Source: Eledone cirrhosa | Taxonomy: Eukaryota | DNA: 64,000 nt | NCBI GenBank assembly: GCA_964016885.1 | Contig: OZ024740.1 | Coordinates: 182,528,001 to 182,592,000, forward strand | Direction of reading: 5' to 3' | In this document: piece after piece, positions 3,927 to 58,962 of the stretch | Numbering within the stretch: the first letter of the stretch is position 1 | Layout: every line of letters starts with the position of its first letter | Notes under the pieces: generated by a model | Database searches by the model: none | Seen by the model: only the letters and a program-made list of their open reading frames with translations | What the model was told of the DNA's origin: nothing | Made by a program: the position numbers and the translations under genes

Positions 3927-3995
3927 ATATATTTTATCTGATGAAAACGTACTGAAACACCATTGTATCTTTGAAATATGTATAATAAAATATAT
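3927..3995 (+). ncRNA. Minimal type I hammerhead ribozyme motif (decayed, PLE-type)
   Basis: ATATATTTTAT-CTGATGA-stemII(weak)-GAAA-TATGTA-TA-ATAAAATATAT; 11-bp stem I; same layout as 49324-49394. Confidence 0.6.
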
Positions 3996-4050
3996 ATTTT
4001 GGTTATGAAAATATTTTTCATTTATTAATATTTTGAATAATATATATATA

Positions 4051-4247
4051 TAATAATTGTTTCTATTTTTGGCACAAGGCCAACAATTATCCTAGTGTAT
4101 TACTGGTACTTTATTTTATCGACCCCGTAAGGATGAAAGGCAAAGTTAACCTCGGCGGGATTTGAACACAGACCATAAAGGGCCGTATCTCTTTTGCTGC
4201 AAAGCATGGCGTCCGACCCACTAGCGATGCTGCCAATCCACCGCCCT
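4051..4247 (-). mobile_element. SINE family A, full length
   Basis: Reverse complement of GGGCGGTGGATTGGCAGCATCGCTAG...B box...GTCGATAAAATAAAGTACCAG...AGAAACAATTA. Confidence 0.9.
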
Positions 4248-4290
4248 TATATATATAATAACAGTCCTATATATATATATAATAATATAT

Positions 4291-7200
4291 AGGACTGCGA
4301 GCACTCCTCTTTGTTTCGACCGTGGAAGGCTAACATAACCCCATCGCCCCCCGCCCACCACCGCCCCCAACCCCCAAACGCAATCCAAAACTTCAGAGTT
4401 GGTACCATAAATGTAGGCACCTTAAAGGGTCGCGCTAACGAGGTTGTAGAAATGCTTGAACATAAGGAGGTCGATGTTTGTTGTATTCAAGAGACCAGGT
4501 GGAGGGGTGGGTCTGCTAGATTCATTGAGGGTAAAAAACGATGTTATAAGCTTTTCTGGGTGGGAAATGACGATGGGCTGGGTGGAGTAGGTATGATGGT
4601 AGCAGAAAAGTGTGCAGATAAGATAATAGACGTAAATAGAGTGAACGACAGAATAATTAAAATAAGACTTGTCCTCAATAGAACTACGGTGATAGTAATA
4701 TCTGCGTACGCACCCCAATCCGGACTGCCCGGCACTATAAAAGACAGATTCTATGAGACACTGATGCTCACTACCTCCCAAATAACCGACAGTGACTATA
4801 TCATTATCGCAGGCGACCTAAATGGTCACGTTGGACAACATTGTGACGGCTACGACGAAATCCATGGAGGCTATGGGTTTGGTACTAGAAATGAGGAAGG
4901 CTCCAGAATCCTGGAATTCTGTGACGCAAATAACCTAACTATCTGTAACACTAACTTCAAAAAACGTGACAATCACCTGATCACCTATAGATCCGGGGAA
5001 CACACAAGCCAGGTAGATTATATCCTTACCAGAAGACGTGACAGAGTGTCTGTTGTAAACACTAAATCCCTCCCCCATGAAGAATGCACCTCGCAACATA
5101 GACTGATAATTAGCGACCTCATAGTCAGGAGGAGACGTACTCGACAGCAGAAGAGGATTATCCTCAGGAGAAAAATATGGAAGCTAAAGGACCCCACAGC
5201 CAGAAATAAATTTCAAAGCATATTACTTGATGCTTTCGACAGTAAGGAAGAGCATTTAGAGTCGGACAATATAGAGGGACAGTGGGAATTTCTGAAAGCA
5301 AACTGGCTGATGGCGACAGACGAAGTCTATGGCTGGAGCAGGCCTGTAGGCAGGAGGAGAGTAACATGGTGGTTGAACAGTAGGGTGGAGGGGTCAATTA
5401 AGGCCAAAAAGCAGGCTTGGAAAGTATGGCGGGATGGGGGAAGTAGAGAAGAATATCAAGTGGCCAGGAGGGAAGCTAGGAGACAAGTGTACTTTGCAAG
5501 AAGGGAAGCAGAGGAAAGAAAGTTCAAGCATGTTCTACAACGCGAGGACCAAAAACGTGAGGTGTTCAGGATTGCTAGGCAATGTGTCAAGGAAAACCGT
5601 GATATTGTCGGGGAGAAGTGTGTACTTAATGATGACGGCGTACTTGCCATCACCGACGCTGATAAGAAGGTAGCTTGGAAGTGTCACTATGAAAGGCTAC
5701 TAAATAAGGAGAATAAATGGGAGAAAGACAGTCTCCCCCACATCGACCCAATAGAGGGACCAGCAGTGTTAGTCGAGGGTAGTATAATGAGTAAGGCAAT
5801 CAAGGATATGAAAACGGGTAAGGCGGCTGGGCCTTCGGAAATAGTTGCTGAGATGCTGAAGGCATCTGACTCGGTGGGACACACCTTGGTCACCCGGATA
5901 GTTAACCAAGTCGTACAGAATGGGGTTGTTCCGAAGGACTGGCATAGCAGCATCATCGTTAACTGTTATAAGGGTAAAGGAGATGCCCTAGATAGGAGTA
6001 ACTATAGAGGCATTAAACTAATCGACCAGGTCATGAAGGTCACGGAAAAAGTAATAGCGCAACTAATCAGAGAGAGAATTGACCTAGATGAAGTTCGGGT
6101 TTGTGTCAGGCAAAAGTACCACAGACGCTCTTTTCATTGTACGTCAACTACAGGAGAAGAACCTAGCTAAAGGTAAACCCCTCTACTTAGCTTTTGTCGA
6201 CTTGGAGAAAGCCTTCGACAGAGTCCCCCGTTCCATTATCTGGTGGGCCCTTAGAAAACTATGTGTCGACGAATGGCTTGTGAGAGCTATACAAGCCATG
6301 TATAAAGAAACAGTCAGCAAGGTTAGAATTAACAACGAATATAGTGAAGAGTTTAGCGTAAAAGTTGGCGTCCATCAGGGCTCTGTTCTCAGCCCCCTAC
6401 TATTTATTATTGCCCTTCAGGCTATAACAGAGGAGTTCAAGACTGGCTGCCCATGGGAACTCCTATACGCAGAAGACCTGACACTCATAGCTGAATCAAT
6501 GGCCGAGCTAGAGAAGAAATTCCAAACATGGAAGCACGGCCTAGAATCAAAAGGCCTTAAAATTAACCTGGCTAAGACTAAAGTTCTAGTTTGTAGGAAA
6601 GAAAATAAGGCGGCGGTCCCTTCCGGGAAATGGCCATGCTCAGTGTGTAGGAAAGGTGTAGGTAGAAACTCCATTTTATGTCCCAAATGCAAAGTGTGGG
6701 TGCATAAAAGATGTAGTGGGATCACAGGTAAGCTAACTAAGAACATAGATTTTACATGTGGGCGGTGCTCTGGTGCAATAAGTAGCAGCGAGTGCCCACA
6801 AAATACTAATTCTTTCAATTGCCCAGAGGGCTCTATAGAAATAGTGGACAGCTTCCGTTACTTGGGTGACAAAATCAGCAGTGGGGGAGGGTGCTCCGAA
6901 AGTACAGTAGCTAGAGTCAGAACTGGATGGAAAAAGTTCAGAGAGCTTATACCACTATTAGCCACTAAAGGGTTCTCCCTAAAAATGAAAGGCAGGTTGT
7001 ATGATGCCTGCATACGAACAGCAATGTTGCATGGCAGTGAGACCTGGGCATTGTGCGCAGAGGATATACGCAGACTAGAGAGGAACGAAGCTTGCATGCT
7101 CCGCTGGATGTGTAATAGTAATATACGTGAACGGCAAAGCATAAACGAACTAAGGAAAAAATTAGAAATAAGAGGGATCAGATGTTGTTTACTCGAGAGA

Positions 7201-56400: not shown

Positions 56401-57138
56401 TGCATACATTTTAAAGGGTTCCTATTTAAATTAATATCTTTCAATGTAGCTTGATGTAAGGCGCTTTTGTTAAGTAAGGTTACAATGAAATAATAACTTA
56501 GCGATTCTCTCCAAATTCTTCATCAATTATTCAAATTCATTGTATATCATTAGAAATATATTAAAAGAAGTTTATGACTGGTTAAAAGAACATAAAGTGT
56601 TAATATTACCTATCATAAAAAACAATTGCCAAATATTGCAGAATTACCTGCAAGAATATTGTCACCCTTGTATATTGATAATATGCATGATATTGTAATA
56701 GAGGGTAGGCTATTATTTTGTAAATGTTATTCCATCAAATAATATCTTATGATGATATTTTCATTGCCTTGAGTGAATTAATCAATGCTTTTAACAAGAA
56801 AAACAAAACATGATGCCACCATACATTCTGTTTCTTTTATGTTTATTTGATCCTCTCAGGCATCCTATGGGAAAAAGATATTAATTCATATGTGGCACTA
56901 TCTTAGATGTTGAGATCCTTCCTTTTTTTATGGTTTATGTCAGAATGTTTTATTTGAAATATAACTAAACTTTCAATCCCAAGGAATTCATAGTTGTGTC
57001 TTAATATTTTTCTTATACTGTTTGTTGTAAAATTCTAGAAGGTACATTTTTAAGACCGTTTTCTACTATCTTTCTCTTATTCCATATATCGATATATATG
57101 TGTATTAATTAAAATCGATTAAAGTTGAATTCCTTTAA

Positions 57139-57359
57139 CCCTTTAGCATTTGCATTACTCTATATTTACTATTGTATTCTCAGAGTAAAGGCTTTATCTC
57201 ACATAAATATCTCACATAATGGCAAATCTAGGGGGTTTTTATATTATTTATTTTGAGAATAATACGTTAACATTAATATGAGTGGCTGGTTACAGCTGGT
57301 TTGAACAGAAAGAGGTGAGAGAATTCTGGCCGGATATGGCAGGTTTAAATACTAAAGTG
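57139..57359. mobile_element. piggyBac-type (TTAA) MITE
   Basis: TTAA-CCCTTTAGCATTT ... AAATACTAAAGTG-TTAA. Confidence 0.7.
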
Positions 57360-58445
57360 TTAAATATAATGAAATAAGAATATAAAGCTTATATCTGTCA
57401 GGCATTTCAATGAAATAAGATTTGCTATTTTACAAGAATTACAAATATCAGCTACAGATAAGAATAATTCTAAATAGCTATATTTTAATGAGATAGCAAA
57501 ACAGTTACTTCAAAATTATGATGGCATTCTATCTGTACAAACCTGCATTCCTATATTTCAAGCAGAACCTCTTATTTGCAAAAACCATTCAATTAATAGC
57601 AGAAGCAAAGAAGAAGAATACAACAAATATAAATTGGTTCAGAAAAGAAATATGAATTGATTTCCAAATTTTCTTTATCTAGAATATGATAGATTTTGTC
57701 TTAACATTCAATTTACACGAAATGAGACATAGCTGAAGACACTTTCTTAATATAAATACTTTATTTATTAGAAAAGTTAAAATGTCTACTGTCCATTTAA
57801 TCTCACCCAAATTTCCTGAGCAGTTGAAGAATAGCAAATATTTCCTATTTGTAGGTTAATAGCGGAAATGATATAAAACAAAACTATTTGGCATCACCCT
57901 ACAATATTCTCCAGACATCAATATATCATCATTGGACAGAGAATATATCTCAGATGTTTTAAGATAGTTTACATACTTATGTTGATATAACATTTTAACT
58001 GAATAATTCATGAATGCAAATGTGTTTTAAACTAAACTGCTTTATTATATTTACTGTAAATTTTACCAAAGTGTTCTCCTATATTTATCTGGTTAAAAAT
58101 CCTGTATGACTAAAACTGACATACTGTTAAGCTATCAATAGAAATTGAAAGACAGATATCAAATGTTATGTTTGATGTTGCTGTGTCTAAGAAACTCCTG
58201 TGTTTAGAGTAATAATAAAATATTACTTAAGTAAAATATTTTTATCATCTGATCAATATACATTATAAAAAATGTTGATAATCTTGATAATCTTGATATG
58301 ATAGATCCATTACCTAAGTAATAAACTCATAATCAAATATCTTTTTTATCTATCCAGAGAAATACATTGCTGGTTATTTAGCCTCTAGTTAAAATTGCAA
58401 ATATATATATATATATATATATATATATATATATATATATATATA

Positions 58446-58962
58446 ATGGAAAAATTTGAACAGGGACAAAACAGAGAGGCAGTACAACGAATGTTTATTA
58501 ATTTCACGCTCTGGAAAGTGGGGTGTTGGTGGGGGACGACGTTTCGGGCATAAGCCCTTCCTCAGGTGAGAAGTGTGTGGGAACAGAGTTCAAAGGGTGT
58601 GTAGGGGAGTGGTGGAGAGACATATAGCAAAAGGAAACGGTGCGAATGAAAAAATAAAAAATAAAGATAAAAATAAAAATAAAGCATGATCAAAATACAA
58701 GGAATGAGATAAATTTAAATATAAAGGCATGATAAAAATAAACTGATATTAAAAGGGAGGTAAAACAGGTGGTGGAAGGGTGTGGTAAGGCACCAGATGG
58801 ACCATAACGCACCAGAGTACTCACTACTTAGGGTAGTAGAGTGGGTAATAGGAAAAAGTATGACCCCGCGGCAGAGCTCAAGCCGTTTCAATGGCTATAT
58901 CAGTCCAGAAATAGCCGTCGAAATGGCTTGAGCTCTGCCGTCGGGGTCATACTTTTTCCTAT
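58446..58962 (-). mobile_element. PLE-type pLTR remnant with HHR and terminal fold-back hairpin
   Basis: HHR at 58535-58568; hairpin arms 58848-58898 / 58911-58962; (TA)n both sides. Confidence 0.75.
58535..58568 (-). ncRNA. Minimal HHR motif
   Basis: AC-CTGAGGA-A-GGGC-TTAT-GCCC-GAAACGTC-GT; intact core, palindromic ACGT stem III, very short stem I. Confidence 0.65.

Follow-up and report, generated by a model that had tools for sequence, protein, structure and literature searches.

Hammerhead motifs in a 64-kb stretch of the Eledone cirrhosa genome as probable 3′ ends of Penelope-like elements, including an abundant family with a fixed U4A core

Introduction

Minimal type-I hammerhead ribozymes have been reported from the pseudo-long terminal repeats (pLTRs) of metazoan Penelope-like elements (PLEs), and an extra nucleotide before helix II, a palindromic helix III and a pattern of solo motifs from many families were already described there (Cervera and de la Pena 2014, PMC4209133). 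Insertion into (TA)n, a tail and inverted 5′-truncated copies are given as the insertion marks of PLEs in PMC8557442; the Hydra clade, to which the octopus element Hydra-1_Obim belongs, inserts in (TA)n (PMC8557442, File S1). The function of the PLE hammerhead is called unclear in the same paper, and the motif was dispensable in vitro in PMC11167929. Here, we analyzed 64,000 nucleotides from Eledone cirrhosa (assembly GCA_964016885.1, contig OZ024740.1, positions 182,528,001 to 182,592,000 of the forward strand), hereafter called the window, for which a first-pass annotation made from the sequence alone had listed about eight hammerhead motifs from about six families. Ten type-I hammerhead-shaped motifs in seven groups (A1, A2 and B to F) were found in the window. 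These motifs are very probably the 3′ ends (pLTRs) of TA-targeting PLE families together with one retrozyme-like unit, and the abundant family E, which carries a fixed U4A core, is predicted to be a poor cleaver.

Hammerhead Motifs in the Window

The window, which lies on C1 of the 3.0-Gb assembly, is AT-rich animal DNA rich in TA microsatellites, RTE LINEs (long interspersed nuclear elements) and fragments of the Penelope-like kind. The type-I descriptor combined CUGANGA, GAAA and UH with helix I ≥3, helix II ≥3 and a palindromic or closed helix III. In its strict form it matched five motifs (3938+, 12890-, 20701-, 20713+ and 49332+), whereas 200 local dinucleotide shuffles averaged 0.065 and none of them reached five. 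The core CUGANGA...GAAA...UH is present at 3.9, 12.9, 20.7 (both copies), 49.3, 50.6 and 58.5 kb, while family E (14.8 and 53.1 kb) and the 31.0-kb motif depart from the canonical CUGANGA. The motif at 58565- passes the descriptor only if helix I is allowed to be 2 bp long, the usual length in family D, and the one at 50595+ (family C) has a single C-A mismatch in helix III at a position that is paired in most family copies. The 53.1-kb copy ends inside the core, and the 14.8-kb core is the family-fixed CAGAAGA. The A-type families exchange one palindromic helix III for another.

It is a negligible prospect that these motifs are chance matches in AT-rich, repeat-rich DNA. They are short, and about 1–2 of the 43 matches in the genome sample described below are expected by chance, but the three helices around the core exceed chance in both the window and the sample, and many near-identical genomic copies were found for every family.

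All seven sites of the first-pass annotation hold hammerhead-shaped sequence, and a second copy at 20.7 kb was absent from its list. The extra nucleotide that it saw before helix II is present at 12.9/31.0, 50.6 and 58.5 kb but not at 20.7 and 14.8/53.1 kb, where a U-U mismatch occurs instead. It also stated correctly that most motifs lack an adjacent open reading frame (ORF), with an own-family ORF adjoining only the 12.9- and 31.0-kb motifs, and that the motifs lie near TA tracts, a (TA)5 tract being located 63–214 nt downstream of all ten. Its guess that the motifs are unannotated agrees with Rfam, in which no hammerhead family occurred among 129 window-wide matches at E ≤ 10. Against the models of clan CL00010, the scores fell below the gathering cut-offs (50.6 kb, Hammerhead_1, 11.8 vs. 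34 bits; 20.7 kb, 12.2 vs. 48.5 bits), and the Rfam hammerhead models gave no match at 14.8 and 49.3 kb.

Association with Penelope-like Elements

Genome searches gave 25–30 loci per family. In every family, the copies have a fixed 3′ end in (TA)n with or without a tail, a variable 5′ cut and often an inverted partner. In family F, 17 of 25 loci have a PLE endonuclease upstream on the same strand. For family E, a Hydra-type ORF preceded the motif, on the same strand, in 18 of the 30 loci retrieved through the endonuclease and in all nine long-ORF loci. Among extended loci, chosen for long shared upstream sequence, a Hydra-like ORF preceded family A2 in four of four, and a PLE reverse transcriptase (RT) with a CX4CxxC linker preceded family D in two of eight. 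For family B, a Hydra-like ORF was upstream in four of 30 longer loci and inverted in four more. The CxCX5C linker was observed in the ORFs of families E, A2 and B, with RWR and DKT also present in E; the hammerheads of A2 and B have the canonical core, while that of E carries A4. Group A1 and family A2 have helix I in common. Family C is a non-coding unit of 432–466 nt (loci L065, L069 and L075) in which the start recurs as the tail, as in a retrozyme monomer, and a second same-strand hammerhead was found in none of its 25 loci within the 3-kb locus. From these sequences, five groups appear to be the 3′ ends of RT/GIY-YIG-type PLEs, one a retrozyme-like unit of ~460 nt, and one is unlinked.

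Several points weigh against this assignment. Six of the eight family D loci showed no PLE RT, and the ORF links of A2 and D depend on loci chosen for long upstream sequence. No PLE match was found within 3 kb upstream of seven sampled copies of group A1, and no PLE ORF was found upstream in the 25 loci of family C, whose unit closes on itself. Pfam fails to recognise Hydra-type proteins, and therefore the probable placement of families E, A2 and B in the Hydra type is a clade call from motifs and tblastn, not from a tree.

Other attributions were considered and rejected. The motifs are not the 5′ end of the RTE LINE that begins at 4293, as TA tracts and a short repeat stand between such elements and the 3.9- and 49.3-kb motifs, and a PLE ORF precedes the copies of family A2 at other loci. 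Nor is the 14.8-kb motif the 5′ pLTR of the family F ORF beside it, since it belongs to family E. At locus L177, the ORF near family B came from another insertion, and the family B link was taken from other loci. Fragments of PLE RT and endonuclease from other families, none with its own hammerhead close by, were also observed in the window at 28865-29344 (+) and 19769-19915 (+).

The Fixed U4A Core of Family E

The core of family E reads CAGAAGA, and exact 29-mers with A4 numbered 19,559 against 89 with U4. BLAST of the genome sample suggests up to about 76,000 copies of the family (17 matches). A4 was present in all 62 family E copies that had been chosen independently of the hammerhead, which fall into two subfamilies, and in the copies with intact ORFs of 705 and 709 aa. 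Among 18 single core substitutions of CUGANGA searched in the genome sample, only CAGANGA was clearly enriched (11 vs. 1.0). The 14.8-kb motif can be dismissed as a decayed copy, since A4 is the norm of its family. The U4 copies do not represent an ancestral subfamily either; of 12 U4 loci taken from the 89 that exist, nine lie at truncation or inversion junctions and three resemble point mutants. Among the loci examined, no family was found that is sister to E and has U4 in its core. The family E hammerhead is also covered, at very low depth, by contigs of runs X5 and X6, whose labels name other organisms. A literature search, to whose coverage subscription papers, figures and bioRxiv supplements do not belong, found no report of a natural U4A hammerhead. 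The U4A core fixed in family E appears to be a new element.

We take the family E motif to be weak or silent because single mutants of the CUGA turn had low activity in a deep scan of another hammerhead (PMC9901934) and dead hammerhead mutants of a PLE still insert in vitro (PMC11167929). It is possible, though we consider it doubtful, that family E is instead an active natural variant, in which A4 is tolerated or compensated by a loop 1-loop 2 contact or by the element's own protein and cleavage processes the element RNA. The fixation of A4 in two subfamilies and in intact-ORF copies speaks for such a variant, and a dead ribozyme sits uneasily with the remaining core bases and all three helices, which are intact. 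Subfamily-diagnostic changes also avoid the hammerhead, with 6/55 sites changed upstream and 0/57 within it (Fisher p=0.012, a post hoc test). The closed helix III would permit folding as a monomer, a viroid hammerhead with U4C is functional (PMC3088659), and a PLE hammerhead can be protein-assisted, as in an Anolis PLE (PMC11167929). Set against this variant are the weakness of all the CUGA-turn single mutants in the scan, the absence of any visible compensating core change, and the fact that the conservation could equally reflect recognition of the 3′ end for copying. The lowest-energy RNAfold structure of family E is not the hammerhead (z=-1.2), a point against the explanation preferred here.

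A GT-AG intron of about 760 nt also interrupts the 3′ untranslated region/pLTR of family E; it can start at either of two donors and has a single acceptor, which lies ~100 nt upstream of the hammerhead (L277, G000:C5:24607500-24614500; L281; L237; L280). The exact spliced junction was found in 102 genomic copies, and therefore the family has moved through spliced RNA; a spliceosomal intron in the pLTR region was observed in family E only. This intron bears on the idea that A4 owes its fixation to a CAG splice acceptor that the change introduces into the core. Speaking for it, the core has TTTCAG behind a run of pyrimidines, the region holds a GT-AG intron, and an intron of Drosophila Penelope ends at helix I (PMC4209133). 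However, no genomic copy was spliced from the main donor to the core CAG, against the 102 spliced to the acceptor upstream. The idea is thus largely refuted by a genome-wide test covering the main donor, and we regard it as highly improbable.

Genome-Wide Abundance

The genome was sampled at even intervals in 67 stretches of 10 kb, which gave 669,800 called bases (unplaced contigs left out), and matches were counted as the union of two descriptors, with ten shuffles as control. In this sample, 43 canonical-core matches were obtained against a mean of 1.2 in the shuffles, which amounts to 64/Mb (bootstrap 42–90); the window has six motifs by the same rule. The earlier supposition that the density of the window is typical of the genome was therefore borne out at the DNA level. 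We estimate the genome-wide total at about 1.9 × 10^5 canonical-core motifs, with a range of 1.3–2.7 × 10^5, though this count is an extrapolation from 0.02% of the assembly. The descriptor excludes hammerheads with a U3-A8 core pair and scrambled hammerheads, which would raise the total. Hammerheads with a U3-A8 pair were seen at L207:9441(+), on the minus strand of L207 and at L305, the flank of which is repeated head to tail. At L191, upstream of a family B copy, a GAAA-like strand precedes CUGAUGA and may be a scrambled hammerhead.

The sampled matches fall into 18 sequence clusters, nine of them multi-copy. Of 41 sampled motifs, 36 have a (TA)5 tract in the 300 nt downstream, compared with 22% of random positions. 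The base of helix II carries an extra base in seven of the 43 motifs, a mismatch in 13 and neither in 23, while helix III is palindromic, the dimer-dependent type, in 29 and closed in 14. A same-strand partner within 5 kb was found for only three of the 43, and an antisense copy within 3 kb for nine; at 20.7 kb, the family B pair folds into one duplex of -91 kcal/mol.

The strongest reading of the first-pass annotation, a repertoire in use by the host in which transcripts of many copies would cut host RNAs or give rise to circular RNAs, is improbable on these figures. The sheer number of motifs, the 14 with closed helix III and the head-to-tail unit of family C, which resembles expressed retrozymes (PMC7229834), are what can be said for it. 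Against it, the 29 palindromic motifs look dimer-dependent and partners are rare, an antisense copy would sequester the motif in a duplex such as that at 20.7 kb, copies decay (31.0, 50.6 and 53.1 kb), and no cleavage-site reads were found for the Anolis PLE (PMC11167929). Most copies are solo and likely inert, because the palindromic helix III needs a partner that so few have, while others have an antisense copy beside them.

With regard to counts in other animals, the axolotl genome is about ten times larger than this one. Its 126,247 hammerhead motifs (PMC7229834) are the largest count among the literature compared, and 235 Rfam hammerhead matches were reported for the giant squid (PMC6962438). 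The words ribozyme and hammerhead are absent from the text of the Octopus vulgaris repeat paper, and a literature search of the coverage given above found no octopus-wide hammerhead count. Rfam-based annotation misses nearly all of some 10^5 motifs. The large and diverse ribozyme repertoire proposed by the first-pass annotation thus stands in number and diversity but is not unexplained, since it consists of PLE 3′ ends (pLTRs) and non-coding derivatives, a published class of which it is a large example at unusual scale. Both the PLE link and the fixed U4A core had been missed.

A Model for the Spread of the Motifs

We propose that a PLE would be transcribed from the upstream pLTR, and that its protein would nick TA-rich DNA and start copying at the 3′ tail, a step carried over here from the Anolis PLE (PMC11167929). 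The hammerhead, within about 60–210 nt of the 3′ end, would be kept by even the shortest insertion. Its position near the start of copying would account for the many motifs, the few ORFs and the TA neighbours, and the high abundance is likely due to copying that starts just downstream of the hammerhead, with most insertions cut 5′. Within this explanation, it is moderately probable that family E spread without efficient self-cleavage while keeping its three-helix fold, perhaps as a protein-binding structure.

We lean, by a small measure, towards the view that this is the densest hammerhead load so far counted in any animal (~64 canonical motifs/Mb) and that its top Hydra-type family is built on an undescribed U4A core, which would be either an active core that standard descriptors overlook in tens of thousands of copies or a catalytically silenced fold retained in some other role. 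Family E offers a natural experiment, being a recently successful element with a core off consensus at a position thought essential. If the silenced fold were true, it would provide in vivo evidence that Penelope elements need no self-cleavage.

Other Features of the Window

The positions of the hammerheads and the related ORFs are shown in Table 1. A stretch at 54502-54596 (+) has a 77% match to L195, a weak descriptor match of the sample, and is possibly a further decayed family.

Table 1. Hammerhead motifs and associated Penelope-like sequences in the window
Feature	Position	Strand	Characteristics
Hammerhead, group A1	3927..3995	+	Long helix I, near-palindromic helix III, site AUA; solo remnant before TA tract; clusters with 7 sampled copies
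Minimal hammerhead, family F	12859..12893	-	3-bp helix I, +1 nt, palindromic helix III; in 3′ end of PLE at 13265-14744
5′-truncated, frameshifted PLE ORF, family F, RT + GIY-YIG endonuclease	13265..14744	-	Pfam RVT_1 E=2.8e-16, GIY-YIG E=1.1e-6; tblastn
Hammerhead, family E, core CAGAAGA (U4A)	14817..14867	-	5-bp helix I + bulged extension (14808-14882), U-U + 3-bp helix II, closed helix III, site CUU
Hammerhead, family B, inverted copy with tail to about 20574	20657..20707	-	Descriptor match
Hammerhead, family B	20708..20756	+	U-U at helix II base, closed 4-bp helix III, site GUA; perfect fold-back with inverted copy
Second family F ORF fragment (RT end + endonuclease)	29638..30567	+	96% identity to 13.3-kb endonuclease frame
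Decayed hammerhead, family F	30950..30984	+	Two core substitutions
Partial inverted copy, family A2 3′ end	48736..48789	-	
Hammerhead, family A2	49324..49394	+	8-bp helix I, long helix II, palindromic helix III, site AUA
Hammerhead, family C	50589..50672	+	6-bp helix I, +1 nt, 6-bp helix III and GUC in most copies; ~460-nt non-coding head-to-tail unit
Hammerhead, family E, cut inside core at inversion junction	53069..53114	+	
3′ half of family B hammerhead	53151..53192	-	Absent from the first-pass list
Minimal hammerhead, family D	58536..58567	-	2-bp helix I, +1 nt, palindromic helix III, site GUC; then AATAAA, fixed end at (TA)n

Other repeats were also detected. A LINE at 4293-7422 (+), which we take to be of the RTE type, encodes an endonuclease, an RT and a PHD finger after the RT; fragments lie at 15.1, 25.8, 34.5-36.7 and 46.3-48.6 kb, and the longest copy has one frameshift. 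A hAT transposase remnant at 17000-18043 (+) gave a weak Pfam match to Dimer_Tnp_hAT (E=5e-4), while two short frames at 33406-34088 (+), presumably resembling a mariner transposase, gave no Pfam match. Dispersed repeats like short interspersed nuclear elements occur at 4053, 8047, 49488, 52806 and 55634 and at 941, 10337, 37984 and 40459, and they often share TA tracts with hammerhead ends.

Comparison with Known Systems

The pLTR hammerheads of metazoan PLEs are the class to which most of the motifs probably belong. PMC4209133 gives about 2,000–9,000 motifs per genome, compared with the estimated 1.9 × 10^5 here, and the core variants named in the parts of that paper compared are U3-A8, not U4A. 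Families B, C and E differ further in their closed helix III.

The Hydra clade of PLEs with a C-terminal endonuclease (Craig et al. 2021, PMC8557442) shares with the present families the CxCX5C linker, DKT and RW(K/R), insertion in (TA)n, a tail and inverted 5′-truncated copies, and many of its listed hammerheads have U-U at the base of helix II. However, all hammerheads in File S2 of that paper have CUGANGA with U4, whereas family E has CAGAAGA, and the hammerhead of Hydra-1_oBim is unlike the window families in sequence. Few Hydra families were found in that study, while several occur here at thousands to tens of thousands of copies.

Metazoan non-LTR (long terminal repeat) retrozymes (PMC7229834; bioRxiv 10.64898/2026.07.22.740005) are, like family C, non-coding head-to-tail units with a type-I hammerhead. 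Family C differs in being ~460 nt long and mostly monomeric, with PLE-type inverted ends, while the other families are ORF-linked PLE ends and not tandem arrays.

Lastly, natural core variants (Perreault et al. 2011, PMC3088659) resemble family E in having one core base off consensus with the fold kept. The text of that paper gives U3-A8, A6C, U15.1-A16.1, insertions and the viroid U4C as rare cases, and U4A is absent from it (Figures 5, S6 and S7 lie outside this comparison). In contrast to these rare variants, U4A is the norm of family E, with at least 19,559 copies.

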